The notes below the pieces were generated by a model. That model had not been told where the DNA came from. It worked only from the letters and a program-made list of their open reading frames with translations, and did not search any database. Of a stretch of 64,000 nucleotides of DNA, positions 1-53,250 are shown piece after piece (within the stretch, counting starts at the first letter, position 1; the number at the start of each line of letters is the position of its first letter). Position numbers and translations under genes: made by a program. The stretch comes from Eledone cirrhosa (lineage: Eukaryota): NCBI GenBank assembly GCA_964016885.1, contig OZ024740.1, positions 243,536,001 through 243,600,000 on the forward strand, written 5' to 3'.

Positions 1-3000
1 TGGCACCAACATAACTTTACATAGAACGGGGTGGTGTGGATGGGGTGGGGGTGGTGGGACGGGGTGTATTTTGTTAGAGATGCCTACTGGCTGTAGTAGG
101 TTTTACTATGTATTTAGGTAAGGCGGGTCTTCTCTGTTACTGAGTACTGCCAAAGGTCTCGGTCCAGTGACATTGTCTTGGAGAGGTGTAAGTGTGTGAG
201 GTCGGAGTTTATCAGCTCGTCCCAGGTTTTTCTAGGTCTGCCTATTCCGTGGCTACCGTCTATCTTTATTGCCCTGCACTTTGTTATACAGCTATCGACT
301 TTCATGCGCATCACATGTCCATACCAACGTAGCCTTCTCTCGAGTAAACAACATCTGATCCCTCTTATTTCTAATTTTTCCCTTAGTTCGTTTATGCTTT
401 GCCGTTCACGTATATTACTGTTACACATCCAGCGGAGCATGCAAGCTTCGTTCCTCTCTAGTCTGCGTATATCCTCTGCACACAATGCCTAGGTCTCACT
501 GCCATGCAACATTGCTGTTCGTATGCAGGCATCATACAACCTGCCTTTCATTTTTAGGGAGAACCCTTTAGCAGCTAATAGTGGTATAAGCTCTCTGAAC
601 TTTTTCCAACCAGTTCTGACTCTAGCTACTGTACTTTCAGAGCACCCTCCCCCACTGCTGATTTTATCGCCCAGGTAACGGAAGCTGTCCACTATTTCTA
701 TAGAACCCTCTGCGCAATTGAAAGAGCTAGTATTTTGTGGGCACTTGCTGCTACTTATTGCACCAGAGCACCGGCCACATGTAAAATCTATGTTCTTAGT
801 TAGCTTACCGGTGATCCCACTACATCTTTTATGCACCCATACTTTGCATTTGGGACATAAAATGGAGTTTCTACCTACGCCTTTCCTACACACTGAGCAT
901 GGCCATTTCCCAGAAGGGACCGCCGCCTTATTTTCTTTCCTACAAACTAGAACTTTAGTCTTAGCCAGGTTAATTTTAAGTCCTTTTGATTCTAGGCCGT
1001 GCTTCCATGTTTGGAATTTCTTCTCTAGCTCGGCCATTGATTCAGCTATGAGTGTCAGGTCGTCTGCGTATAGGAGTTCCCATGGGCAGCTGGTCTTGAA
1101 CTCCTCTGTTATAGCCTGAAGGGCAATAATAAATAGTAGGGGGCTGAGAACAGAGCCCTGATGGACGCCAACTTTTACGCTAAACTCTTCACTATATTCG
1201 TTGTTAATTCTAACCTTGCTGACTGTTTCTTTATACATGGCTTGTATAGCTCTCACAAGCCATTTGTCAACCCCTAGTTTTCTAAGAGGCCACCAGATAA
1301 TGGAGCGGGGGACTCTGTCGAAGGCTTTCTCCAAGTCGACAAAAGCTAAGTAGAGGGGTTTACCTTTAGCTAGGTACTTCTCCTGTAGTTGTCGTACAAT
1401 GAAAAGAGCGTCTGTGGTACTTTTGCCTGACACAAACCCGAACTGCATTTCATCTAGGTCAATTCTCTCTCTGATTAGTTGCGCTATTACTTTTTCCGTG
1501 ACCTTCATGACCTGGTCGATTAGTTTAATGCCTCTATAGTTACTCCTATCTAGGGCATCTCCTTTACCCTTATAACAGTTAACGATGATGCTGCTATGCC
1601 AGTCCTTCGGAACAACCCCATTCTGTACGACTTGGTTAACTATGCGGGTGACCATGGTGTGTCCCACCGTGCCAGATGCCTTCAGCATCTCAGCAACTAT
1701 TTCTGAAGGCCCAGCCGCCTTACCCGTCTTCATATCCTTGATTGCCTTACTTATTATACTCCCCTCGACTAACACTGCTGGTCCCTCTATTGGGTCGATG
1801 TGGGGGAGACTGTCTTTCTCCCATTTATTCTCCTCATTTAGTAGCCTTTCATAGTGACACTTCCAAGCTACCTTCTTATCAGCGTCGGTGATGGCAAGTA
1901 CGCCGTCATCATTAAGTACACACTTCTCCCCGACAATATCACGGTTTTCCTTGACGCATTGCCTCGCAATCCTGAACACCTCACGTTTTTGGTCCTCGCG
2001 TTGTAGAACATGCTTGAACTTTCTTTCCTCTGCTTCCCTTCTTGCGAAGTACACTTGTCTCCTAGCTTCCCTCCTGGCCACTTGATAGTCTTCTCTACTT
2101 CCCCCATCCCGCCATACTTTCCAAGCCTGCTTTTTGGCCTTAATTGACCCCTCCACCTTACTGTTCCACCACCATGTTACTCTCCTCCTGCCTACAGGCC
2201 TGCTCCAGCCACAGACTTCGTCTGTCGCCATCAGCAGGTTTGCTTTCAGAAATTCCCACTGTCCCTCTATATTGTCCGACTCTAAATGCTCTTCCTTACT
2301 GTCGAAAGCATCAAGTAATATGCTTTGAAATTTATTTCTGGCTGTGGGGTCCTTTAGCTTCCATATTTTTCTCCTGAGGATAGTCCTCTTCTGCTGTCGA
2401 GTACGTCTCGTCCTGACTATGAGGTCGCTAATTATCAGTCTATGTTGGGAGGTGTATTCTTCATGGGGGAGGGATTTAGTGTTTACAACAGACACTCTGT
2501 CACATCTTCTGGTAAGGATATAATCTACCTGGCTTGTGTGTTCCCCGTATCTATAGGTGATCAGGTGATTGTCACGTTTTTTGAAGTTAGTGTTACAGAT
2601 AGTTAGGTTATTTGGGTCACAGAATTCCAGGATTTTGGAGCCTTCCTCATATCTAGTACCAAACCCATAGCCTCCATGGATTTCGTCGTAGCCGTCACAA
2701 TGTTGTCCAACGTGACCATTTAGGTCGCCTGCAATAATTATATAGTCACTGTCGGTTATTTGGGAGGTAGTGAGCATCAGTGTCTCATAGAATCTGTCTT
2801 TTATAGTGCCGGGCAGTCCGGATTGGGGTGCGTACGCAGATATTACTGTCACCGTAGTTCTATTGAGGACAAGTCGTATTTTAATTATTCTGTCGTTCAC
2901 TCTATTTACGTCTATTATCTTATCTGCCCACTTTTCTGCTACCATGATTCCTATTCCACCCAGCCCATCGTCGTTTCCCACCCAGAAAAGCTTACAACAT

Positions 3001-3650
3001 CGTTTTTTACCCTCATTGAATCTAGCAGACCCACCCCTCCACCTGGTCTCTTGAATACAACAAACATCGACCTCCTTACGTTCAAGCATTTCTACAACCT
3101 CGTTAGCGTGACCCTTTAGGGTGCCTACATTTATGGTACCAACTCTGAAGTTTTGGATTGCGTTTGGAGGGTGGGCAGGCGGGGGGAGATGGGGTTATGT
3201 TAGCCGTCCGCGGTCGAAACAAAGAGGAGTGCTCGCATACTCGTCCACGAGGTGAATTTGTCTTTATCTTTGGCATTGTCGCTGAGCGTCCAGATTTTTC
3301 TCTCTCTTCCACTCTCCAGGATTCCGCAGTCCATCCATCCATCCATCATATATCGAAAGGCAACTGGGCAAGCGATAGTATAGGCTCTGGCTTATGATTG
3401 GTCCGCGTAATAATAATGGTGATGCGTGGGGGCTCTGGCTTATGATTGGTCCACGTAATAACAATGGTGGTGCGTGGGGTGTTAGGTAGGTAGCTAGCTG
3501 GAAGGTTAGGATTGTATGAGATCCCCGTGTTTAACAAGCGATTAACAAAAAACAAAAATACAAGATTTGTTCTGTTCAATATGACAAAAACTCCCGTATT
3601 TAACATAAATAACAAAAAATACAGATTTGCTTTAGGAAAACGTTCGCTAC
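1..3650 (-). mobile_element. Near full-length RTE-clade LINE (subfamily A); 3' UTR runs off the window start
   Basis: APE endonuclease motifs (CIQETRW, SAYAPQ, IAGDLNGH, SQHRL), RT motifs (FVDLEKAFD, GVHQGSVLSP, YADD, FRYLG) and RTE C-terminus (RRLRWYGHVMR, GRPRKTW). The 5' boundary is approximate. Confidence 0.95.
114..3089 (-). pseudogene. RTE ORF (EN + RT + PHD-like finger) broken by a premature stop at 489-491
   Basis: ORFs 489..3089 and 114..485 are in the same frame. The 21.9 kb and 39.4 kb copies have TGG (HGSETWAL) where this copy has TAG. Confidence 0.92.
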
Positions 3651-26149: not shown

Positions 26150-26610
26150 TTAGCCACATCCCTAACCTCTACATCACACCATCAGGCGCCTCACCACCCC
26201 ATACCACACATCACATATACTATGCTACCACACACCACACCACAACACTATACAACCACATACCACACCACAACATTACACCATCACTACACTACCACTC
26301 TAAGCCCTAGCATATATTGCACCATACCACCACATTACACTACCACACACCTCAACACACCAACACAAATACATTACACCACATTACATCACACTTCACT
26401 CCTACACCACAATACACCATATGTCATAGCATACCACCACACTAAACACCACTACACCACGCCACACTACACTATACATTATACCCTACCACCAGACCAC
26501 ACTACTCCACACCAAACAGAACACTATACCACACCACACCACAACCTCTACTCCATACCAGCAGGCACCCCATAATACCACCATGTCATTACACCACACT
26601 ACATCACTTA
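26150..26610. repeat. Degenerate (CACCA/CACTA)n low-complexity repeat
   Basis: Direct reading. Confidence 0.85.
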
Positions 26611-26844
26611 TCTTGTTTATTTTAAACCTATTTACTTTAGCTATTTCTCATTATCTGAAAACTAATTAGCTTGCTGTCCACTAACCATTCACCCTCTGGC
26701 CACCACTCCACCCTTACTTTTCCAACCCATCATTACTGACATGATTTGGATATCAAGTTTTGTTATTTATGTGAATCATTTAGATTTTCAATTTACTGTG
26801 GTCTGTTGTTGATAGTAGAGATGGTTGTGATGGTGGTTCTATTA

Positions 26845-27745
26845 TTACCACGATCTGTGGAAACACCTCCTTATCTTTCTATAGTGGGTTAGTGATAGGT
26901 AAAAGCGACAACATTCTTGGGGAAACTCTGGGCATCAACAAAAATCAACTAGCCATTCTTTTCCACAGGATTTTCGGTCCATGGCCTATGGACAACTTCC
27001 AGAAATCCTTGGCCTGGCAGTGCTACGAGGAAGCGTTGCCAGTCTGAGATAAACTGTACAGGCATGGAAGTGCCACCAGCTGGGCATATCCGAGATGCGC
27101 GCAGAGCGATGAAACTGTCATGCAAGCATTCATCAACTGGCTTGTGGGTCTATCTCAAACACCTGCTGTCACAAGTGGAACGTCTCAGACTATCAACTGA
27201 GTCCATTGTTAAAATCACCCCACTGCTCTTCCTTAGCCAAGAAGGGCAGGCTGTCTTTGTCAGTCTGGTGGTCACAATGAAAGAGTTTGTATGGTGAACA
27301 CATCTGAAAGGACTGAAGATGGGCACTTTTCTTTTCGGTGACTCCCTGATTTTGGGTTTCACTTAAAGAGAAAAATCATGGTGGAGAGGGAAGTGCTGCC
27401 TTCAAAGCAATTTTTTGAAAAGTGGGTGAAAGAGGCAAGAATGGCCCGAGTGAATGGGTCTGCTCTGAGACTGTGCCTGTAGATTGAGGGAGGACACCTA
27501 GTAAAGGGCATGTGCCCTGGCAGTCAGGGTGACTGTGGCTTTGTGGGCTTTCTCCATGATGAGTAACCCTCAGCAGCCCCCCCCCCCCCCTATTGGGGAC
27601 ATTTTTTTTTGTTTCTATTTTTTTTTGTTACATCCTTTGTTTTTGTTTTATACTCATTTTTACATGCAGAAACCCACATTGTAGCCCCCCTGTGCTGTCC
27701 TTAATATGTTTTTATATAAACCTTTTGTGGTCAATAAAGAAAACT
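26845..27745 (+). mobile_element. Tx1/L1-clade LINE 3' fragment
   Basis: Homologous to the reverse complement of 14370-15280 (atggacaacttccagaaatccttggcctggcagtgctac, gcaagaatggcccgagtgaatgg). Confidence 0.85.
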
Positions 27746-28041
27746 TTAAAAACAAATAACGAAACGAAATTAAATTTCGTTTCGTTTGTAACTCACTTTT
27801 GTATGACTGACGCTTAAACAATTAAGTTAAAGATGTACATCCATATATGTATACTGAAATACTAGTATGTATATGAATACACACACGTATACATATGTAG
27901 GTGTACCAAGTTTTTTCACTGGTCACTTTACTGTGAGTGGCCAGCTATTCTGTATGTAAACACACAGACAAACCGGTTTTTAGAGTCATACTGGTTTTTG
28001 AGGAAACACCTCTCCTCTATTCTCCAGAAAGCCAGACAAGG

Positions 28042-28086
28042 AATATTGAACTAGTTTCGTTGTTGTTACAACTCATCAGCAATATT
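28042..28086 (-). ncRNA. Minimal type I hammerhead ribozyme
   Basis: aatattg CTGATGA gttg-taacaa-caac GAAA ctag TT caatatt. Confidence 0.85.
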
Positions 28087-28742
28087 TACCTATCTTCCGG
28101 CCTCTCTAGAGAATCGTAAAAGCACATATCGTTATATGCTTTTTCTATGAAAATTAGTAGTGGGCAGACTAATTTGCATAGAGTGTGAGTAAGTACCGGT
28201 TCAACGGAGACGATAAAAACAAATAACGAAACGAAATTAAATTTCGTTTCGTTTGTAACTCACTTTTGTATGACTGACGCTTAAACAATTAAGTTAAAGA
28301 TGTACATCCATATATGTATACTGAAATACTAGTATGTATATGAATACACACACGTATACATATGTAGGTGTACCAAGTTTTTTCACCGGTTTGTCTGTGT
28401 GTTTACATACAGAATAGCTGGCCACTCACAGTAAAGTGACCAGTGAAAAAACTTGGTACACCTACATATGTATACGTGTGTGTATTCATATACATACTAG
28501 TATTTCAGTATACATATATGGATGTACATCTTTAACTTAATTGTTTAAGCGTCAGTCATACAAAAGTGAGTTACAAACGAAACGAAATTTAATTTCGTTT
28601 CGTTATTTGTTTTTATCGTCTCCGTTGAACCGGTACTTACTCACACTCTATGCAAATTAGTCTGCCCACTACTAATTTTCATAGAAAAAGCATATAACGA
28701 TATGTGCTTTTACGATTCTCTAGAGAGGCCGGAAGATAGGTA

Positions 28743-28787
28743 AATATTGCTGATGAGTTGTAACAACAACGAAACTAGTTCAATATT
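28743..28787 (+). ncRNA. Minimal type I hammerhead ribozyme
   Basis: aatattg CTGATGA gttg-taacaa-caac GAAA ctag TT caatatt; perfect 7 bp stem I, palindromic stem III. Confidence 0.85.
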
Positions 28788-29032
28788 CCTTGTCTGGCTT
28801 TCTGGAGAATAGAGGAGAGGTGTTTCCTCAAAAACCAGTATGACTCTAAAAACCGGTTTGTCTGTGTGTTTACATACAGAATAGCTGGCCACTCACAGTA
28901 AAGTGACCAGTGAAAAAACTTGGTACACCTACATATGTATACGTGTGTGTATTCATATACATACTAGTATTTCAGTATACATATATGGATGTACATCTTT
29001 AACTTAATTGTTTAAAGAAAACTTTATTATAT

Positions 29033-29650
29033 TGGATTGGCAGTATCGGTGGAGCATCAAACAACATGCTTCACAGCATATAGTGTTACGGCCCTTTGTC
29101 TTCTGATTTCAAATCCTACTGAAGTTAGCTTTGCCTTTCATCCTTATGGGGTCAATAAAATAAAACACAAGTAATGCACTGGGGTCAATTTAATTGACTT
29201 TCCCTTCCCGCTGAATTGCTGGTCTTGTGCCTATAGTAGAAATCATTATTATTATTGGCGGCGATTTGGCAGTATTGGTAGAGGGTTGGACGCCATGCTT
29301 TCTAGCATAGTTACGTCCTATTACGATCTGAGTTCAAATCCCGTCGAGGTTAACTTTGCCTTTCATTCTTATGGGGTCGATAAAATAAAGTACCAGTAAT
29401 ATACTGGGTAATTGCTGGCCTCGTGCCAAAAGTAGAAACAATTATTGGCAGTATTGGTAGAGGGTCGGACACCATGTTTTTCAGCATAGAGTTACGGCCC
29501 TTTGCTGTCTGAGTTCAAATCCTGCTGAGGTTAACTTTCATCCTTACGGGATTGATAAAATAAAATACCAGTCACGCACTGGGGTTGATTTAATCGATTT
29601 TCCCCTCCCCCAAAATTGCTGGCCTTGAGCCTATATAAGAAACGATTATT
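29033..29650 (+). mobile_element. Three tandem Meta-domain SINEs
   Basis: ttggcagtatcggt...gttcaaatcc...gcctttcatcctta...ggggtcgataaaataaa...tagaaa plus ATT tail, three times. Confidence 0.85.
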
Positions 29651-29928
29651 TTTATTTACCCCTGAGTTAGGAGCCACACTTCACATTGGGTTAAGTAAAT
29701 TTTCATTATTTGTATACTTTATTACCATCTCTGACAATTTGTTCAAGTTTTAAACTTGACAAAAGTTTGGGGCAACTGACCTGCTTCTCACAGGTGGGTC
29801 AGTCATGTTGATATGACACCTTCTTAAGAGGGTGTCATCTTTGTTTAATTTGCTGTTTAAAAACAAACAAAAATTTTGAAAATTATGAACATGAGACAGA
29901 GCAAGGAGAACGCAGGAAAAGGTCTCAT

Positions 29929-29960
<32 letters not shown>

Positions 29961-30354
29961 TCACTGTAACAAACTGAAAATAAATGAGGAAGACAGTGTC
30001 CCATAATATTGACAGATTTTAAACAAAAACAAAACCATATTATTTGAGATAATATAGTTTTAAACACTCAAAAAGATAATGAAAACACAGTCAACATGAA
30101 TAACAACAAAGACCACAGCAACAACAATAACAAAAACAATGACAACAACAACAATAAAAGTGAAAACAAGAACAAAAACAACAGCTGCAATAAAATCAGA
30201 AAAGGCAACAACAATGAAAACAGTGACAACAGCAGCAACAACAACAACAAGTCAACTAGAAAACCAACAAATAATGTCAGCTCTACAAAATCTTTCGCTA
30301 GTGCCATAAAAACTTCTTTCTGGTAGATCACTTTATCTGAAAAGAAAGTAGAAC

Positions 30355-32399: not shown

Positions 32400-35300
32400 T
32401 GTCTGACCTTTCTAAAAATAATCTTCTCGTAAACTTTCCTAACCCAACACCCACACACCACCGTTGCTATTTGGTCCAATCATAATTCAGTGGTTTATAG
32501 TATGTTTCTCTTACCAATCTCTATCAAAAAACCACCACCTCGGCTATTACTCCATAAGTTTAGACCTGGTTGCTTTTCGATATGCTAAATGGACTTCACA
32601 ATTTGGAGAGTCTGAACAATCTGAACATTCAATGACAATGTGAAAGATAAAGATAGATTCACCTCCCGCTGCCGGACGAGAATGCAAGGACTCCTCTTTA
32701 TTTCAGACATGGATGGCCAACATAATTACATCCCCCCCCCCCCCCGGCTAGGTGGAGTAGGAATTATGTTAGCAGAAAAATGGGTAGATAAGGTAATTGC
32801 CGTAAATAGTGTGAACGACAGAATAATTAAAATAATTGTTTCTATTTTAGGCACAAGGCCAGCAATTACCCAGTACATTACTGGTACTTTATTTTATCGA
32901 CCCTGTAAGGATGAAAGGCAAAGTTAACCTCGGCAGGATTTGAACTCAGATCATAAAGGGACGTAACTATGCTGGAAAGCATGTCCGACCCTCTACCAAT
33001 ACTGCCAATTCACCATACTAGTCCTAAATAGAACTACTGTGACAATAATATCTGCTTATGCACCCCAATCTGGCCTACCTGGCGTTATAAAAGACAGCTT
33101 CTATGAGTCGCTAATGATCACTACCTTCCAAATAACCATGACTGCATAATTATTGCTGGCGACCTAATTGGTTATGTTGGACAACATTGTGATGGCTATG
33201 ATGGAATCCATGGAGGCTATGGGTTTGGTACTAGAAATGAGGAAGGCTTCAGAATCCTGGAATTACGTGACGCTAATAACCTAACTATCTGTAACACAAA
33301 CTTCAAAAAACAAGACAATCACTTGATCACCTATAGATCAGGGGAACACGCCAGCCAGATAGAGTATATCCTTATTAGAAGACGTGACAGAGTGTCTGTT
33401 GTAAACACTAAATCCTTCCCCTGTGAAGAATGCACCTCCCAACATAGCCTCATAGTTAGTGACCTCATAGTCAGGACTAGACGTACTCGATGACAGAGGA
33501 GGACTACCCTGAGGAGATAAATATCAAAATTGAAGGATCCCACAGCCAGTAACAAATTTAAAAGTATATTCTTGATGCTTTTGACAGTAAGGAAGAGCAA
33601 TTAGAGATGTACAACATACAGGAACAGTAGGAATTTTTGAAAGTTAATCTGCTGAAGGTGACAGATGAAATCTGTGGCTGGAGCAGACCTAAGGCAGGAG
33701 GAGAGTAACTTGGTGGTGGAACAGAAAGGTGGAGGAGACAATCAAGGCCAAAAAGCAGGCTTGGAAAATATGGCAGGATGGAGAAAGTAGAGAACACTAT
33801 CAAGTGGCCAGGAGGGAAGCTAGGAGACAAGTGTACCTTGCAAGAAGGGAAACAGAGGAAAGAAAGTTCAAGCATGTTCTACAAGGACCAAAAACGCGAG
33901 GACCAAAAACGTGAGGTGTTCAGGATTGCAAGACAATGTGTCAAGGAAAACTGTGATATTGTCGGGGAGAAGTGTGTCCGTAATGATGATGGTGTACTTG
34001 CCCTCACTGATACTGATAAGAAGATAGCTTGGAAGTGTCACTACGAGAGACTACTAAATTAGGAGAATAAATGGGAAAAAGATAGTCTGCCCCAAATCGA
34101 TCCAATAGAGGGACCAGCGGTGCAAGTTAAAGGTAGTATAATAAGTAAGGCAATCAAAGATATGAAGACAGGCAAAGCAGCTGGGCCTTTGGAGATAGTT
34201 GCTGAGATGTTGAAAGCATCTGGAATGGTGGGACATACTATAGTCACCCGGATAGTAAACCAAGTAATACAGAATGGAGTCATACCAAATGACTGGTGTA
34301 GCAGCATTATCGTTAACTGCTACAAGGTTAAAGGAGATGCTCTAGATAGGGGAAACTATAGAGGAATTAAGTTAGCTGACCAGGTCATGAAGGTCACAGA
34401 AAGAATTGATCTAGATGAAATGCAGTTTGGGTTTGTGTCAGGTAAAAGTACCACAGATGCTCTTTTCCTTGTACGACAACTACAGGGGAAGTACCTAGCT
34501 AAAAGTAAAGCCCTCTACTTTGCTTTTGTTGACTTGGAGAAAGCCTTTGACAGAGTCCCCTGCTCCATTATCTGGTGGGCTCTTAGAAAACTAGGTGTAG
34601 ATGAATGGCTTGTGAGAGCTATACAAGCCATGTATAAAGAAACAGTCAGCAAGGTTAGAATTAACAACGAATATAGTGAAGAATTTAGCATAAAAGTTGG
34701 TGTTCATCAAGGCTCTGTCCTTAGCCCCCTCCTATTTATTATTGCCCTTCAGGCTATAACAGCGGAGTTTAAGACTGGCTGCCCATGGGAACTTCTAAAC
34801 ACAGGTGATCTAACTCTCATAGCTGAATCTATGGCTGAACTAGAAAAGAAATTCCAAACATGGAAGCATGGCCTAGAATCAAAAGGCCTTAAAGTTAACT
34901 TGTCTAAGACTAAAGTTCTAGTATGTAGAAAGGAAAATAGGGCACAGGTGCCCTCTGGGAAATGGCCATGCTCAGAGTGTAGGAAAGGAGTAGGTAGAAA
35001 CTCCATTTTATGTCCCAAATGCAAACTATGGGTACATAAAAGATGTAGTGGGATCACAGGTAAGCTATCTAAGAACGTAGATTTTATATGTGGCCGATGC
35101 TCAGGTGCAATAATTAGCAAATGCCCACAGGATACTGGCTCCTTCTATTGCCAAGATGGTTCTATAGAAATAGTGGACATTTTCCGTTACCTGGGTAACA
35201 AAATCAGCAGTGGTGGAGGGTACTCTGAAAGTAGAGTAGCTAGAGTCAGAACGGGATGGAAATAGTTCAGAGAGCTTATACTGCTGTTGGCCACAAAAGG

Positions 35301-38675: not shown

Positions 38676-41540
38676 TCATCATCATCATCATCATCATCAT
38701 CATCGTTTAACATCCATGTTCCACGCTTGCATGGGTTTGGACGGGAGTTTTCCCACTTGAGGCAAGAGTGGTTGTCTTGCTCGCATAGGACTATGTGGCG
38801 GGTTTTCTACAGCTGGATGCCCTTCCTAACACCAACCACATTTACAGTGTAGACTGGGAGGTTTTTACCGTGTTGCCTACACGGCCACATTACAACGTGG
38901 ACTGTGTGTTTTTTTGTCGTGACACCTACACGATCTCATTTGTTTCGGCCTGGATGTTGTGGCACCAACATAACTTTACATTGAAAGGGGCGGTGTGGAT
39001 GGGGTGGTGGTGGTGGGACGGGGGTGCATTTTGTTAGAGATGCCTACTGACTGTAGTAGGTTTTACTTTGTATTTAGGTAAGGCGGGTCTTCTCTATTAC
39101 TGAGTACCGCCAAAGATCTTGGTCCAGTGACATTGTCTTGGAGAGGTGTAAGTGTGTGAGGTCGGAATTTATCAGGTCGTCCCAGGTTTTTCTGGGTCTG
39201 CCTACTCCGTGGCTACCATCTATCTTTATTGCCCTGCACTTTTTTATACAGCTGTCGTCTTTCATGCACATCACGTGACCATACCAACGTAGCCTTCTCT
39301 TGAGTAAACAACATCTGATCCCTCTTATTTCTAATTTTTCCCTTAGTTTGTTTATGCTTTGCCGTTCACGTATATTACTATTACACATCCAGCGGAGCAT
39401 GCAAGCTTCGTTCCTCTCTAGTCTGCGTATATCCTCTGCACACAATGCCCAGGTCTCACTGCCATGCAACATTGCTGTTCGTATGCAGGCATCATACAAC
39501 CTGCCTTTCATTTTTAGGGAGAACCCTTTAGCGGCTAATAGTGGTATAAGCTCTCTGAACTTTTTCCATCCAGTTCTGACTCTAGCTACTGTACTTTCAG
39601 AGCACCCTCCCCCACTGCTGATTTTGTCACCCAGGTAACGGAAGCTGTCCACTATTTCTATAGAACCCTCTGCGCAATTGAAAGAGCTAGTATTTTGTGG
39701 GCACTTGCTGCTACTTATTGCACCAGAGCACCGGCCACATGTAAAATCTATGTTCTTAGTTAGCTTACCTGTGATCCCACTACATCTTTTATGCACCCAT
39801 ACTTTGCATTTGGGACATAAAATGGAGTTTCTACCTACTCCTTTCCTACACACTGAGCATGGCCATTTCCCGGAAGGGACCGGCGCCTTATTTTCTCTCC
39901 TACAAACTAGAACTTTAGTCTTAGCCAGGTTAATTTTAAGGCCTTTTGATTCTAGGCCGTGCTTCCATGTTTGGAATTTCTTCGCTAGCTCGGCCATTGA
40001 TTCAGCTATGAGCGTTAGATCATCTGCGTATAGGAGTTCCCATGAGCAGCCGGTCTTGAACTCCACTGTTATAGCCTGAAGGGCAATAATAAATAGTAGG
40101 GGGCTAAGAACAGAGCCCAGATGAACACCAACTTTTACGCTAAACTCTTCACTATATTCGTTGTTAATTCTAACCTTGCTGACTGTTTCTTTATACATTG
40201 CTTGTATAGCTCTCACAAGCCATTCGTCAACACCTAGTTTTCTAAGAGCCCACCTTATAATGGACCGGGGGACTCTGTCAAAGGCTTTCTCCAAGTCGAC
40301 AAAAGCTAAGTATAGGGGTTTACTTTTAGCTAGGTCCTTCTCCTGTAGTTGACGTACAATGAAAAGAGCGTCTGTGGTACTTTTGCCTGGCACAAACCCG
40401 AACTGTATTTCATCTAGATCAATTCTCTCTCTGATTAGTTGCGTTATTACTTTTTCCGTGACCTTCATGACCTGGTCGATTAATTTAATGCCTCTATAGT
40501 TACTCCTATCTAGGGCATCTCCTTTACCCTTGTAACAGTTAATGATGATGCTGCTATGCCAGTCCTTCGGAACAACCCCATTCTGTATGACTTGGTTTAC
40601 TATCCGGGTGACCATGGTGTGTCCCACCGTTCCAGAGGCTTTCAGCATCTCAGCAACTATTTCCGAAGGCGCAGCCGCCTTACCCGTCTTCATATCTTTG
40701 ATTGCCTTACTTATTATACTACCTTCGACTAACACTGCTGGTCCCTCTATTGGATCGATGTGGGGTGACTGTCTTTCTCCCATTTATTCTCCTCATTTAG
40801 TAGCCTTTTGTAGTGACACTTCCAAGCTACCTTCTTATCAGCATCAGTGATGGCAAGTACGCCAATCATCATTAAGTACACACTTCTCCCCGACAATATC
40901 ACGGTTTTCCTTGACACATTGCCTAGCAATCCTGAACACCTCACGTTTTTGGTCCTCGCGTTGTAGAACATGCTTGAACTTTCTTTCCTCTGCTTCCCTT
41001 CTTGTGAAGTACACTTGTCTCCTAGCTTCCCTCTTGGCCACTTGATAGCCTTCTCTACTTCCCCCATCCTGCCATACTTTCCAAGCCTGCTTTTTGGCCT
41101 TGATTGACTCCTCCACCTTACTGTTCCACCACCATGTTACTCTCCTCCTGCCTACAGGCCTGCTCCAGCCACAGACTTCGTCTGCCGCCATCAGCAGGTT
41201 TGCTTTCAGGAATTCCCACTGTTCCTCTATATTGTACGACTCTAATTGCTCTTCCTTACTGTCGAAACCATCAAGTAATATGCTTTTAAATTTATTTCTG
41301 GCTGTGGGGTCCTTTAGCTTCCATATTTTTCTCCTGAGGATAGTCCTCTTCTGCTGTCTAGTATGTCTCGTCCTGACTATTAGGTCGCTAATTATCAGTC
41401 TATGCTGGGAGGTGCATTCTTCATGGGGGAGGGATTTAGTGTTTACAACAGACACTCTGTCACGTCTTCTGGCTTGTGTGTTCCCCTGATCTATAGGTGA
41501 TCAGGTGATTGTCTCGTTTTTTGAAGTTAGTGTTACAGAT
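38676..41540 (-). mobile_element. 5'-truncated RTE-A, very similar to the 1-3650 copy
   Basis: ORFs 39074..40783 and 40844..41455; (CAT)n tail. Confidence 0.95.
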
Positions 41541-42205: not shown

Positions 42206-43326
42206 ATCATCATCATCATCAACATCATTTTACGTCTGCTTTTCCCTGCTTGCAAGGGTGGGATGGGTCCTATTCAACACAGCATCTCTCCACTTGTCAC
42301 GGTCCTTCATCATCTCCTCCGTGAGTTTCAGCGATTTGAGGTCTGCTCTCACTACCTCCGCCCATGTTTTTTGTGGTCTACTTCTACTGCGTCTTCCTTA
42401 TACTGGGATTTCTTGACACTTCTTTACCCAGCGGTCATCCTCCATGCGCATCACATGTCCATACCATCTCAGTCTTCTCTCCTGCACACCACAACTTATC
42501 CCTCTTATACCCACTTTCTTTCTCAACTCGTCTATGCTTAGTCGTTCACGCACATTGACATTGAACATCCAACAGAGCATGCTTGCTTCATTTCTCTCCA
42601 GCCGTCGCATATCCTCTGCAGTTGCTGCCCATGTCTCACTACCACTATCGCGCATCTCACACAGGCATCATATAACCGTCCTTTCATACGCAGGGAGAAA
42701 CCCTTCTTTGTCAACAGAGGAAGCAGCGCCCTAAACTTGTTCCAGCCCGTCCTTATTCTGACCTCAGAACACCCCCTCCCATGCTAATCTGATCACCTAG
42801 GTACCGGAAGCTATCCACCACTTCTATAGAACCCACCTGCATTGGAAAAATGTGTCTATCACTGCGATTACTACTGCCAACTTTCCCTGTACATCTACTG
42901 CATACGTAGTTTTCCCTACCTGTTAGTTTGCCTGCTATCCCACTACATCTCTTGTGTACCCAAGATCTGCATTGCGTACATTTTATGGAATTTATGCCAG
43001 TTCCTTTTCTCCATATCGAACATGGCCATTTCCCTGATGGAATCAGAGTTTTGTCCTCTTTTCTACTCATCAACACTTTTGTCTTAGCTAGGTTCACTCT
43101 CAGTCCTCTTGCTTCCAACTGCTGTTTCCATAGCCAGAATTTATTCTCTAGCTCCTCTACTGATTCTGCTATAAGAACCAGATCATCAGCATAGAGAAGT
43201 TCCCATGGACAGCCAGTCTTAAACTCCTCTGTTATGGCTTGGAGGACTATAATGAACAAGAGCGGGCTGAGGACCGAACCCTGATGTACACCTACTTGTA
43301 TCTGGAATTCCTCACTAAACTCCATA
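42206..43326 (-). mobile_element. 5'-truncated RTE-B
   Basis: ORF 42753..43325 with GVHQGSVLSP and YADD; B-type short tail. Confidence 0.92.
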
Positions 43327-43875
43327 GAGAGAGAGATTTAAATCATTATTCAACAGGGTACTTAATACTTGGGATAGTAGAGTGTAACTATATTAGAGCC
43401 AGGCCACGACGGCTTAGCTCTTGCTAATTTGACAGTCAGTTCCTGACTAGTCTGGAATTAGCTGTTGAAATGGCATACATAATTTTGTTGGGGTATAAAG
43501 CTCAAAAGAATACATCCTAAGTTTAGTTTTTTTAACACAATTTTATTATTGTTAAATGTTACTTAGTGCATATTTATATGTCTATATATATACATAGTTT
43601 ATTGGTGTGTAACATTTGATACTTTGTTCCAGCTACTTGTTATATGTGTATATATATATGTGTATATAAGTATGTATACGTACATACATATATGTATACA
43701 GACGTACAGTAGTGTGTATATATATATACATACATGTACACATATATATATATGTACGTATGGGTTTACCGAACATTTATTATAATGTTCTGTTTGTTTG
43801 TAAACAAAGAGCCTGAATTAAGCCATACAGTGTTCGGCAACCATCGTTGCCCCTTTGTTCAACACTGACAAAGGA

Positions 43876-43918
43876 ACGATGAACTAGTTTCAAGCTTATT
43901 AGCTATCGTCAGCATCGT
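43876..43918 (-). ncRNA. Minimal type I hammerhead ribozyme (GUU site)
   Basis: acgatg CTGACGA tagct-aata-agctt GAAA ctag TT catcgt. Confidence 0.8.
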
Positions 43919-44314
43919 ATACCTTCCTGTCAGAGGATTGAATGTTTGAAAGTATATACTTTCCTTATGCATATTAATGGCTGAGCAGCCTAATTTGCAT
44001 ATCGAGTGAGTTAGTCGGCCGGGCGCACCGAAAACGATAAATGGAAAAGAATGAAACAAAATTTTATTTCTCACTCTTAGTACGGCTGATACTTAAATAT
44101 AAGTATATAAGTATGTATACGTACATACATATATGTATACAGACGTACAGTAGTATGTATATATATATACATACATGCACACATATATATATGTACGTAT
44201 GGGTTTACTGAACATTTATTATAATGTTCGGTTTGTTTGTAAACAAAGAGCCCAAATTAAGCCATACAGTGTTCGGCAACCATCGTTGCCCTTTTGTACA
44301 ACACTGACACAGGA

Positions 44315-44357
44315 ACGATGTACTAGTTTCAAGCTTATTAGCTATCGTCAGCATCGT
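44315..44357 (-). ncRNA. Minimal type I hammerhead ribozyme (GUA site)
   Basis: acgatg CTGACGA tagct-aata-agctt GAAA ctag TA catcgt. Confidence 0.8.
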
Positions 44358-44815
44358 ATACCTTCCTGTCAGATGATTGAACGTTTGAAAGTATATACTT
44401 TCCTTATGCATATTAATGGCTGAGCAGTTCCTTACTGTGGTTACTCCCAATTTAACCTGGGACTCACACACACATATATATGTATATAAAAAAAATATTC
44501 TTATGAAGAATTCGTCTCCTGATGATAAAACTTCAGTTCTTCCAGCAAGGGAACAGACAAAGGTAATGTTTTTGAATGCACAAAGCTGTGGAGGGGAACT
44601 GAAGCTCACAAGAGAACAGACAAAAGCTTCAAAAACATTATTTTTGGGGTTCCCTCGCTGTTTTAGTTTGGATTGCCTCGAGAGTGTAACCTTATTATAT
44701 AATGAAGCTGTCTGATGAGATCATGATACTGGTTACGTAAAATCACATGGCCACTGTCAACATTGAAAAATATATCACAGACTTTTTAACATCCACAACA
44801 ACTTTGCAGTTTTCT

Positions 44816-45234: not shown

Positions 45235-47880
45235 GATATAATCATCGTTATCATTTATATAGACATTATCAAGACCAGCAATTATCCCAGTAAAGTACCA
45301 GTAATGTACTGTGATAATTGCTGGCCTTGTGCCAAAAGTAGAAACAATTTATACAGACATTATATGATGATGATGATACACATACGCAAACATATTATGC
45401 TGAATGCTCTCCAAAGGTATTTCCCCTTTGCTCACTGACACACACACACACACATACAAATACACACACACAACCACACACATGTTAGCTAATCTAAATA
45501 TATATACTGTCCAGGCATTCAGATCATTTTCTAACTATATCGAAGCCGGAAGTGTATCCTTTTCAAACAAATCATGGCAATTTCTGATCAATACCTCATT
45601 GTAGTGAAAATATGTGTGTGTGTGTAAGTATTTGTGAATGTATACATGTGTGTGTATATATATATGTATGTAGATATCAATGAACTCACAATTAAAAGAA
45701 ACCCACCAGTCTACTGTAAGCACTCTCCCTGAAGGTAACCCAGCTAGGAGGTTGAAATCACAATTAGACATCATGGAGAGCAATTCTGCAGAGGGGAAGC
45801 ATGGACTGTTTAAGCCACAGTGAAGGTAACCTGTCCAGGGTAGTAATAACTCTGAAAAACAATTTACATTGCTGTAGATTTTGCCATCCACTGTGAAAGT
45901 AATCTATATAGATGCACAGTAACTCTGGTTACAAGGAAAGGGGGGGAGGAGATGTGGATTCTGCAAATCACAGTGAATGTAAACAAAACTCAAACTTTTA
46001 AAAATAATCCAGATTTAGAGGACAAATCTAAAAATGATTTCTAATTTAGGTACAATGCCAACATTTTGTGAAGAAGGGAAAGTTGATTATACCGACACTA
46101 GTACTTTACTGGTACTTATTGGAAAGATAAAAGGCTAGGAAAACAGCAAATCTGAATCATCATCATCATCATCATCACCGTTTTACGTCAGTTCTTCCAC
46201 ACTAGCATGGGTTAGACGGGTTGTCCTGTTGTGTGCAGTGTCTGGTCGGCTGACCATGCCTTGCTTATACAGGAACTGATCTGGCTTGATTTCTACAGCT
46301 GGATGCCCTTCCTAACACCAACCTCATTTACAGTGAGTGCTGGGTGCTTTTTCGTGGCACCTACACGTCCACTTTACAGTGTGGGCTGGGTGCTTTTTTG
46401 CCGTGGCACCTCCATGACTACCTTGCGGTGGGGGTGTGGGGGCATATTGTTTATATGCTTCAGCATGTACCCATGGGAGGTCGGGTACTCTGTATTACTG
46501 CGTGACGCCAGAAGTCACGGTCGTGTGTCATTGTCTTTGAGAGGTGTAATTGGGTAAGGTCAGCTTTTATCACCTCATCCCAGGTCATCTTGGGTCTCCC
46601 CACTCCGCGGTTTCCATCAACTTCTAGTGCTCTGCACCTTTTTATGCAGCTGTCATCCTTCATGCGCATCACATGTCCATACCAGCGTAACCGCCTCTCC
46701 TGCACACAGCATTTGATTCCTCTTATGCTCAGTCTCTCTCTCAATTCATTTATGCTTTGTCGTTCACGTATATTACTGTTACACATCCATCGGAGCATGC
46801 AGGCTTCGTTTCTCTCTAATCTACGTAAGTCTTCCACCTTCAGCGCCCAGGTCTCACTACCATGCAACATCGCTGTTCAGATACACGCATCATACAGTCT
46901 GCCTTTCATTCTGAGGGAGAAGCCTTTTGCAGCTAGCAGTGGTAGTAGTTCCCTAAACTTCTTCCATCCCGTTCTTACCCTAGTTATTGTACTTTCTGAA
47001 CACCCACCTCCATTGCTAATTCGGTCACCTAGGTAGCAGAAGCTGTCTACTGTTTCTACAGGGCCCTCCCAGAGATTGGTGGTACTTGTTTCCTGTGGCT
47101 GTTTGCTGCTTGCTGTTTCAGCACAGCTGCTGCATGTGAATCCTACATTCTTAATTAAGCTTCCTGAGATCCCGCTACATCTCTTGTGTACCCATTGTTT
47201 GCATTTGGGGCAGAGAATGGAGTTCCTACATACTGAGCAAGGCCATTTCCCTGAGGGGATCTGGGTTCTGTTTTCTCGTCTACTTACAAGGACCTTAGTC
47301 TTTGTCATGTTGACTTTGAGACCCTTTCTCTCTAGTCCCTGCTTCCAGGTTTGGAATTTATTCTCTAGTTCTATCATAGATTCAGCTATGAGTGCGAGGT
47401 CATCAGCATACAGAAGTTCCCATGGGCATCCGGTCTTAAATTCCTCCGTTATTGCCTGCAGGACTATGATGAACAGGAGAGGGCTAAGAACAGAGCCCTG
47501 GTGGACCCCAACCTGTACGCTAAATTCCTCGCTATACTCATTGCTAATCCTAACTTTGCTGACTGCTCCCCTATACATGGCTTGTACCGCTTTCACAAGC
47601 CATTCATCTACTCCTAGTTTTCGAATGGAAAGTGATATAGTATAGAGGGAATACAATCCTGCAAGACAACCTCTCTAGTGCTGGTGGTATATTAAAAAAT
47701 TTATAGCATTTAAAATGTTCCAACAATAAGTGAATGGCCTCTCAATATTTGAGGTTAGAGTGTAAATTATTATGTCTAAATGTACACCTCACCACATATA
47801 TATATATATATATATGCACACATACATGTGTGACTTTGAGAGTGAATGAGTGTGGAAAATGAATGTTATATGGTGATGAT
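45235..47880. repeat. Left arm of an inverted segmental duplication (partner 58275-61625)
   Basis: 45480-46157 and 47623-47875 are reverse complements of about 60770-61440 and 58455-58772. Confidence 0.9.
46158..47622 (-). mobile_element. 5'-truncated RTE-C with GAAT target duplication
   Basis: ORFs 46877..47656 and 46460..46870; gaat at 46154 and 47623; empty site at about 58700. Confidence 0.93.
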
Positions 47881-51754: not shown

Positions 51755-53250
51755 TCATGATCATCACCATCATTTTACGTCCGCTTTTCCCTGCTTGCAA
51801 GGGTGGATCAGGTCCTCTTCAGCACAGCATCTCTCCATTCGTCACAGTCCCTCAACATCTCCTCTGTGAGTTTCAGTGATCTGAGGTCAGCTCTCACCAC
51901 CTCCACCCATGTTTTTTGTGGTCTTCCTCTACTGTATCTTCCTTCCACAGGAATTTCTTGGCACTTCTTTACCCAGCGTTCATCTTCCATGCGCATCACA
52001 TGGCTATACCAAGACAGTCTTCTCTCCTGCACACTACAGTTTATCCCTCTTATATGCAGTTTCACTCTCAACTCATCTAAGCTTGATTGTTCACGCACAT
52101 TGACATTGCACATCCATCAGAGCATGTTTGCTTCATTTCTCTCCAGCTGTCGCCTCTACTGTCTCTTCCTTCCACAGGGATTTCTTGGCACTTCTTTACC
52201 CAGCGCTCATCTTCCATGCGCATCACATGTCCATACCAACACAGTCTTCTCTCCCGTACACTACAGTTTATCCCTCTTATATGCAGTTTCACTCTCAACT
52301 CATCTAAGCTTGGTTGTTCACACACATTGACATTGCACATCCATCAGAGCATGCTTGCTTCATTACTCTCCAGCTGTCGCATATCCTCTGCAGTTGCTGC
52401 CCATGTCTCACTACCATGCAGCATCGCACATCTCACACAGGCATCATATAACCGACCTTTCATTCGTAAGGAGAAACCCTTCTTTGTCAACAGAGGAAGC
52501 TGCTCCCTAAACTTCTTCTATCCAGTCCTTATTCTAGATACTATGGCCTCGGAGCATCCTCCTCCCTTGGTAATCTGATCACCTAGTTATCAGAAGCTAT
52601 CAACTACTTCTATAGATCCTACCAGCATTTGAAAAATGTGTCTATCACTGACACTTCTACTATCAAATTTCCCTGAACATCTACCACATATGAAGTTTCC
52701 CTTCTTGTTAGTTTGCCTGCTATCCCACTACACCTCTTGTGTACCCAAGATCTGCATTTTGTACATTCTATAGAGTTTATGCCAATTCCTTTTCTACATA
52801 TTGAACATGGCCATTTCCCTGATGGAATCAGAATTTTGTCCTCTTTCCTACTTATCAACACCTTAGTCTTAGCTAGGTTCACTCCCAGTCCACTTGATTT
52901 CAACTGCTGTTTCCATAGCTGGAATTTATTCTCTAGCTCCACTACTGATTCTGCTATAAGTACCAGATCGTCAGCGGAGGGAAGTTCCCATGGGTAATCA
53001 GTCTTAAATTCCCCTGTTATGGCTTGGAGAACTATAATGAATAAGTGTTGCCTGAGGACCAATGAACTCCTACTTGTATCAGGAATTCCTCACTAAACTC
53101 CATTCTTACTCTCACTTTACTGACAGCTCCTCTGTACATAGCTTACACTGTCCTCACAAGCCATTCCTCTACATCTAGTTTCTTTAGGGACCACCAGATG
53201 ACAGATTGGGGTACTCTATCAAAGGCCTTCCCTAGGTCAACAAAAGCTAA
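51755..53250 (-). mobile_element. 5'-truncated RTE-B-like copy with an about 220 bp internal duplication
   Basis: ORFs 51808..52113 and 52077..52340 repeat the same C-terminal segment. Confidence 0.9.

Follow-up and report, generated by a model that had tools for sequence, protein, structure and literature searches.

Animal non-LTR retrozymes have already been linked in print to Penelope-like elements (PLEs). The 2020 papers drew this link from co-occurrence (PMC7229834, PMC7761336), and 10.64898/2026.07.22.740005 added a Xenopus phylogeny without settling the mechanism or, with it, the identity of the mobilizing retrotransposon. A typical Penelope insertion consists of direct repeats with an adjacent inverted copy in head-to-head arrangement, an overlap or palindrome at the junction, an optional tail and a duplication of 8-10 bp (PMC3846280), and the PLE insertion anatomy given in PMC8557442 is comparable, with a tail of 30-40 nt. 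According to PMC11167929, the PLE protein, for which a dimer is predicted, cuts and extends both target strands in AT-rich DNA. Synthesis has two internal start sites, both in an AC-rich stem-loop that lies downstream of the hammerhead, and the segment between these sites is the tail. Regarding the ribozymes, the canonical metazoan hammerhead has a helix I of 6 bp, a helix II of 4 bp and a helix III of 1-2 bp with a palindromic loop (PMC4209133), whereas the minimal PLE hammerhead has no helix III, a long helix II and a short helix I, and metazoan pseudo-LTRs (pLTRs) carry minimal ones (PMC4209133, PMC7761336).

Within the 64-kb stretch of DNA analysed here (the window), one locus combines features of both systems. 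The locus probably represents a single, young insertion of an animal non-LTR hammerhead retrozyme, whose 467-bp unit has no ORF and was likely copied in trans by a Penelope-like protein. Judged from its sequence, the element is best classified as a new non-LTR retrozyme within a known class, and it would work like animal retrozymes, with the testable structural features present except for two consecutive ribozymes on one strand. The features of the locus and its surroundings are as follows.

26900..27748, plus strand: decayed LINE 3' end, its A-rich end being the insertion target (75% match to a second copy at 15214-14366; frame broken)
27735..27748, no strand: left target-site duplication TAAAGAAAACTTTA, with 5-bp inverted ends TAAAG/CTTTA around AAAA; its last 2 nt double as element end
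27747..27813, minus strand: 67-nt 'tail', at the left end only, with a 14-bp perfect hairpin (27758-27786) followed by a ribozyme-strand U-run at the element end
27747..28213, minus strand: complete 467-bp unit, ribozyme strand leftward (period analysis; joint 28213->27747 present in three of the four runs compared)
28022..28111, minus strand: type I hammerhead of the left arm, mirror of the plus copy; minus-strand cut predicted 3' of 28049
28214..28390, minus strand: upstream copy, 5'-truncated, 177 nt, which makes the left arm's partial tandem
28390 to 27747, minus strand: left copy as a whole, 644 nt or 1.38 units (the 177-nt truncated copy, then the full unit)
28385..28390, no strand: head-to-head junction ACCGGT, a 6-bp palindrome
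28385..28615, plus strand: upstream copy of the right arm, 5'-truncated, ending at hairpin and U-run; holds the 56-nt spacer
28616..29015, plus strand: right-arm unit, ending 67 nt short, no tail
28385..29015, plus strand: right copy as a whole, 631 nt or 1.35 units
28650..28697, plus strand: octamer ATGCAAAT at 28650-28657 and a TATA-like motif, TATAA, at 28693-28697, both shortly before the ribozyme and both retained by the sister family
28718..28807, plus strand: type I hammerhead of the right arm (Rfam, folding)
29013..29026, no strand: right target-site duplication TAAAGAAAACTTTA; its first 3 nt double as element end
43653..44427, minus strand: sister retrozyme family, older; 441-bp period, 1.76 units, two tandem hammerheads, copies 95% identical
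489-3194 (minus), 34063-35265 (plus), 39074-40783 (minus), 42753-43337 (minus), 46877-47674 (minus) and 52619-53089 (minus): LINE copies with reverse transcriptase (RT) and PHD finger

The sequence-only reading had described mismatch-free arms of 573 bp around a 56-bp spacer with partial tandems of 467 bp on both strands, and sequence comparison confirmed all of this. The left arm (27814-28386) is the perfect reverse complement of the right arm (28443-29015) over 573 nt, or over 577 nt when one mismatch is allowed, and the period of 467 holds on the left (27747-27923 equals 28214-28390 at 176/177 positions) and on the right (28385-28548 equals 28852-29015 at 164/164). The unmirrored spacer of 56 nt (28387-28442) is plain unit sequence belonging to the plus-strand copy. 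On the ribozyme strand, both copies point outward from the junction, where the left copy reads ACTGGT and the right copy ACCGGT, a microhomology of 5/6, and the whole head-to-head insertion spans 1.27 kb. The left copy ends in TTTTTA, just past the 14-bp perfect hairpin, while the right copy stops 67 nt earlier in the unit, which leaves the tail at the left end alone. At 28576-28615 (plus strand) and in the mirror copies, the perfect 14-bp hairpin and the U-run behind it resemble a terminator by score (2 found versus 0.2 expected), and the left element end coincides exactly with such a hairpin and U-run.

The same reading had found no credible ORF, and this was borne out: the longest wholly internal stop-to-stop frame is 62 aa, and seven scanned frames of the element gave no Pfam match. 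The unit contains no LTR, PBS or PPT (PBS and PPT judged by eye), and ARAGORN found no tRNA genes in the 64-kb window. The window element is not an autonomous PLE.

The 14-bp duplication proposed to flank the element is present at both ends, 9 of its 14 bases (27738-27746) being unambiguously duplicated and the remainder also serving as element ends. As a control, a 14-mer was shared at the same spacing by 4 of 1160 position pairs in this repeat-rich window. The target is the 3' end of a LINE, which we take to be L1/Tx1-like. Since the paralogous copy of this LINE ends in the same AATAAAGAAA, the duplicated TAAAGAAAACTTTA is target-derived. Its boundaries, TAAAG and CTTTA, mean that both target strands end in CTTTA-3', and the two element ends have 2 and 3 nt in common with these target strand ends.

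Other repeats surround the insertion. A SINE-like repeat of ~200 bp, presumably octopus-like, lies to its right in three tandem copies (29037-29656) and recurs at ~15 other places with 75-90% identity; ARAGORN gave no tRNA match for it, and it stands close behind each of the two LINE 3' end copies (26900-27748 and 15214-14366). Degenerate simple repeats, (CACCA)n-like and (CAA)n-like, occupy 26150-26610 and 30080-30260. The window also has six copies of a LINE with a PHD finger that stands behind the RT domain or splits it (Pfam). A protein search with a window LINE returned relatives of 45-74% identity, many with RT and PHD in marine data, and the named animal ones came from marine invertebrates.

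Comparison with EN+ PLEs of the Penelope/Poseidon type, such as Pen2a of A. vaga (PMC3846280) and PAc (PMC11167929), revealed the same combination of a partial tandem with an adjacent inverted, 5'-truncated, head-to-head copy. A one-sided tail, a duplication of 9-14 bp in AT-rich DNA, an overlap or palindrome at the junction and ends downstream of the hammerhead are likewise common to both. The suggested Penelope-like anatomy is thereby supported, as the one-sided tail, the target-derived quasi-palindromic duplication and the 5/6 junction microhomology make up the insertion footprint of Penelope. Unlike these PLEs, the element has no RT/GIY-YIG ORF and its hammerhead is canonical instead of minimal; its tail at this one locus is 67 nt versus 30-40 nt there (PMC8557442), and the distances from its ends to the cut site are 235 and 302 nt versus ~90 nt there. 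Non-autonomous PLEs of Chlamys, e.g., MRC1, are similarly non-coding, multicopy, head to tail and ascribed to PLE machinery, but they are algal and belong to an N-terminal-EN clade without canonical hammerheads (PMC8557442).

Rfam Hammerhead_HH9 (RF02275) matched both ribozymes, at 28732-28803 (plus strand) and 28026-28097 (minus strand), with 37.7 bits and an E value of 2.7e-7, which lies below the gathering score of 52. In the right hammerhead, helix I (28744-49/28781-86) comprises 6 bp continued by a bulge and an outer stem, the core CUGAUGA occupies 28750-56, and helix II (28757-60/28767-70) has 4 bp closed by the loop UAACAA. GAAA follows at 28771-74, and helix III is the 2-bp AC-UA-GU, from the palindrome ACUAGU, with a predicted cut after U28780, where GUU ends. 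The extended stem I folds at -34.5 kcal/mol (z -5.6; 0/200 shuffles as low), and the type I descriptor hit four sites in the window and none in any of 30 shuffled windows. Folded as a circle, the unit reaches -146.5 kcal/mol (z -6.9, 0/40 shuffles) and leaves the hammerhead free. MicroRNA profile matches were far below threshold and tracked TA-rich hairpins.

Consequently, the 'minimal type I hammerhead' of the sequence-only reading stands as a type I ribozyme, one per arm, with a palindromic helix III and an extended stem I, but not as minimal (helices I, II and III of 6, 4 and 2 bp). The predicted ribozyme is, by its helix lengths, of the canonical metazoan type and not of the minimal PLE type, which favors a retrozyme over a pseudo-LTR. 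That the element is 'active' can apply to the family only, because with one ribozyme per strand the window copy cannot release a monomer and is a product, not a source. In a read-through transcript of this copy, both ribozymes would be base-paired to their complements within a hairpin of 573 bp.

Further evidence on the ribozyme came from an older sister family 15 kb from the 467-bp element, colinear with the unit and 66% identical to it over 241 nt. A BLAST of the element against the window matched only itself and this family, which likewise forms an ORF-free tandem. Between the two families both sides changed in 6 of 15 pairs (compensatory) and 95.6% of cells pair (2/500 shuffles), in a set of three sequences, two of them independent, from which the structure itself was drawn. 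The sister ribozymes have GUU and GUA triplets and a U-U at the base of helix II, and they were absent from the Rfam matches at E 0.05; the copy at 43653-44427 showed no inversion and no duplication of at least 8 nt. Within the 467-bp family, none of 12 variants found in the hairpin in the run data falls in the conserved core, and one turns GUU into GUC. Pairing is kept in 8 of the 10 stem variants, in two of these through a U-A to A-U swap, and broken in the other 2. These comparisons support structural selection on the hammerhead.

The octamer/TATA block kept in both families presumably has a promoter role, a guess we base on snRNA-type promoters, and newt satellite 2 has an octamer-type promoter. 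The octamer matches the window five times versus 5.3 expected, three of the five lying within the two retrozyme families, and as a promoter element it is a guess to be taken as a lead only. The scarcity of U-runs on the ribozyme strand, considered as a sign of Pol III transcription, was not significant (84/300 and 166/300 shuffles).

In order to place the locus among other copies, public sequence runs were compared over 26650-28213, that is, the left flank and one unit, in four runs (X1, X4, X12 and X21). The flank contigs of X1 equal the window at a depth of ~10 with no substitution. Over the unit, the summed depth in X1 rises to 2.9-5.9 x 10^5, a sum over contigs that is not a copy number, and many unit variants are present. 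These depths point to a very abundant 467-bp family. In X4 and X12, the unit is a single contig (497 and 496 nt, respectively) that closes on itself from 28213 to 27747 with no ORF attached; the head-to-tail joint is therefore the common context, with no ORF branching off. This suggests arrays of the 467-bp family elsewhere. The self-closing, ORF-less contigs and the depth in X1 favor the independent spread of the unit, which the earlier reading had assumed. One X4 contig (record 21), aligned to 27994-28130 over the ribozyme hairpin only, represents a more diverged subfamily with 15 differences in 136 nt.

The runs also bear on the age of the insertion. One X1 contig (record 6, depth 10.7) is identical to the flank up to 27748, where the duplication ends, and its next 36 letters do not belong to the element, which makes it a probable empty allele. 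The record comes from the matches listed, besides which there are at least 3139 further contig pieces, and the occupied allele may also be present in X1. Together with the insertion anatomy, the run comparison upholds the view of a young non-coding retroelement insertion. Position 27901 is G in all four window copies and A in 98.7% of the X1 depth, and position 28012 is C in both window copies and T in 99.6%. The uniformity of these variants across the copies indicates a single template, or else a single homogeneous source, for the entire insert.

The unit was found in 20 public runs that bear 17 different labels of organism or sample type (A-P plus a single wastewater metagenome), none of them an RNA run, so that they have no bearing on expression. 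No horizontal transfer among the labelled organisms is claimed, on the evidence of three of the 20 unit-bearing runs and of X21. On the unit, X4 has a depth of 11-15 and X12 of 4.5; of the LINE parts, just the most abundant are represented in these two runs, by short pieces and at a ratio similar to that in X1. The raw reads of X21 (1938 million letters), which bears the same organism label as X6, one of the 20 runs, contain no read on the unit. These ratios and the absence from X21 fit trace carry-over of a very abundant repeat, which best explains the labels. Metagenome contigs searched with two patterns gave no match to the unit; among viral loci, 29 fitted a loose pattern, of which none passed the stem test or matched the unit by BLAST.

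Set against animal non-LTR retrozymes (PMC7229834; 10.64898/2026.07.22.740005), the unit is similarly ORF-free and tandem, with a canonical type I hammerhead and a GC content of 36% (0.355). Its duplication is longer than those of plant retrozymes, and its predicted circle is strongly self-paired with the ribozyme free, again as in PMC7229834. Helix III resembles that of axolotl HHR_Amex1, and the U-U of the sister family is as in HHR_Amex2 (PMC7229834). At 467 bp the unit is just above the 150-450 bp of PMC7229834 and within the 51-972 bp of 10.64898/2026.07.22.740005. The latter uses two consecutive ribozymes as a criterion; the sister family has two in tandem (43653-44427), whereas the window copy has one per strand, which counts against activity of this copy but not against its place in the retrozyme family. 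The multicopy feature of retrozymes may be reflected in the high depth and many variants of X1 and, at this single locus, in one duplication and the probable empty allele. The accessible retrozyme texts mention neither an inverted head-to-head arrangement nor a tail, and the word 'inverted' occurs 0 times in PMC7229834. Newt satellite 2 and the hammerhead satellites of schistosomes, to which we liken the unit by description, are also tandem repeats whose weak-helix-III hammerheads cleave as dimers (PMC7229834), but they occur in other hosts, and the copy here is a dispersed insertion with intact ends.

The proposed route of insertion builds on what was established directly: the unit, the predicted ribozyme fold, covariation, tandem closure, high abundance, the duplication, the tail and the inversion junction. 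Transcripts of tandem copies elsewhere would be cleaved by the hammerhead, which probably acts as a dimer via the palindromic ACUAGU of helix III, and would be ligated into 467-nt circles. A dimeric PLE protein with RT and GIY-YIG would then nick the AT-rich quasi-palindromic site on both strands, leaving a CTTTA-3' end at each nick. Each nick would prime cDNA on ribozyme-strand RNA at one of two starts, 67 nt apart, that flank an AC-rich hairpin; two such starts account for a tail on one end only. Each cDNA would exceed one unit (1.38 and 1.35), passing an intact ribozyme, which implies a circle or an uncut multimer as template. Finally, the two cDNA ends would anneal at ACYGGT and be repaired. 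Among the 25 window ORFs scanned, none has GIY-YIG as expected of a helper PLE, and six have RVT_1. The circle step is the weakest part of this route, because only one of nine predicted Xenopus retrozyme dimers cleaved in vitro (10.64898/2026.07.22.740005) and because ribozyme cleavage of PAc, an anole PLE, was dispensable for insertion in vitro (PMC11167929).

The same element could also have been inverted by another route, in which one cDNA or an antisense template folds back and primes itself at the ACCGGT palindrome, in place of two target-primed cDNAs. Such self-priming on an antisense template has been proposed for PLEs with junction palindromes (PMC3846280), and it would directly explain the perfect identity of the arms. 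Yet the 56 nt at 28387-28442 of the right arm extend beyond the junction end of the left copy, so that plain fold-back would need a template jump, and the CTTTA ends of both target strands, with their 2-3 nt of priming homology, speak for two target-primed cDNAs. We regard fold-back as unlikely, while giving it some weight.

Considering that the footprint is that of PLE insertions (PMC8557442, PMC3846280), the unit might be merely the pseudo-LTR of a coding PLE and the locus a heavily 5'-truncated, pLTR-only insertion. Opposite-strand hammerhead pairs 100-700 bp apart are known for truncated PLEs (PMC4209133), and Xenopus retrozymes are sister to pLTRs (10.64898/2026.07.22.740005). What renders this reading improbable is that the unit repeats head to tail without an ORF on both strands, forms an unbranched cycle in X4 and X12, has a sister family that is an ORF-free tandem too, and carries a canonical hammerhead where metazoan pLTRs have minimal ones. 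Moreover, the pLTR and tail of the PLEs characterized in PMC11167929 and PMC3846280 include the ORF start, and no such frame is evident here.

Mobilization of a retrozyme RNA by an APE-type LINE, with ordinary twin priming producing the inversion and the 14-bp duplication, appears very unlikely. L1 twin priming with junction microhomology is known, LINE ORFs bearing an RT are common in the window (the RVT_1 matches above), and the left end lies at a U-run in the fashion of a SINE. Nevertheless, the element has no poly(A) or simple-repeat tail and, by BLAST, no 3' end in common with the window LINEs. L1 twin priming inverts part of a single pass, but here each arm is longer than one unit and the two are duplicates of the same sequence. 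The one-sided tail is, in addition, described as unique to PLEs (PMC11167929).

That the palindrome is an assembly or chimeric-read artefact of an ordinary tandem repeat, as the perfect identity of the arms, the trouble such structures cause in assemblies (PMC8557442) and the position of the junction (28385-28390) outside the run comparison of 26650-28213 might suggest, is most improbable, given that the symmetry ends exactly at the duplicated target with unmirrored flanks, that the ends differ by a defined tail, that the junction has 5/6 microhomology and that the probable empty allele departs from the element at the last base of the duplication.

Returning to the retrozyme insertion copied by a Penelope-like protein, our analysis suggests that this element likely reveals which enzyme copies animal retrozymes. 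The papers searched on octopus hammerhead ribozymes and Penelope contain no report of such an element in their accessible text, and cephalopod retrozymes may be listed in the supplement of PMC7229834. The repeat annotation of O. vulgaris assigns 6.83% to Penelope-like elements, and ribozymes are mentioned 0 times in its text and supplement (PMC13282606). Evidence for the retrozyme-PLE link in the form of an insertion footprint was likewise not found in the accessible portions of the literature searched. New here are the Penelope footprint on a retrozyme, a 66%-identical sister family with six compensatory pairs, an abundant self-closing unit and a probable empty allele. As the element class is already known, the surprise is moderate and the mechanistic detail moderately valuable. 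A young copy with intact ends is, in any case, a different kind of evidence, and its footprint leads to predictions of the exact start and nick sites and of a binding hairpin, all testable with a purified PLE protein like that of PMC11167929.

More tentatively, the insertion may preserve the moment at which a dimeric Penelope-like protein copied a retrozyme circle, working simultaneously from the two nicks of a symmetric target. The hairpin that separates the starts would then be a cis-signal recruiting the helper, and the octamer/TATA block and the hairpin-U5 end would be the element's own promoter and terminator. If this possible, still doubtful reading is true, it would provide the helper-identifying motif and the promoter that are missing according to the retrozyme literature (PMC7761336), in a family that could number tens of thousands of copies while remaining polymorphic.
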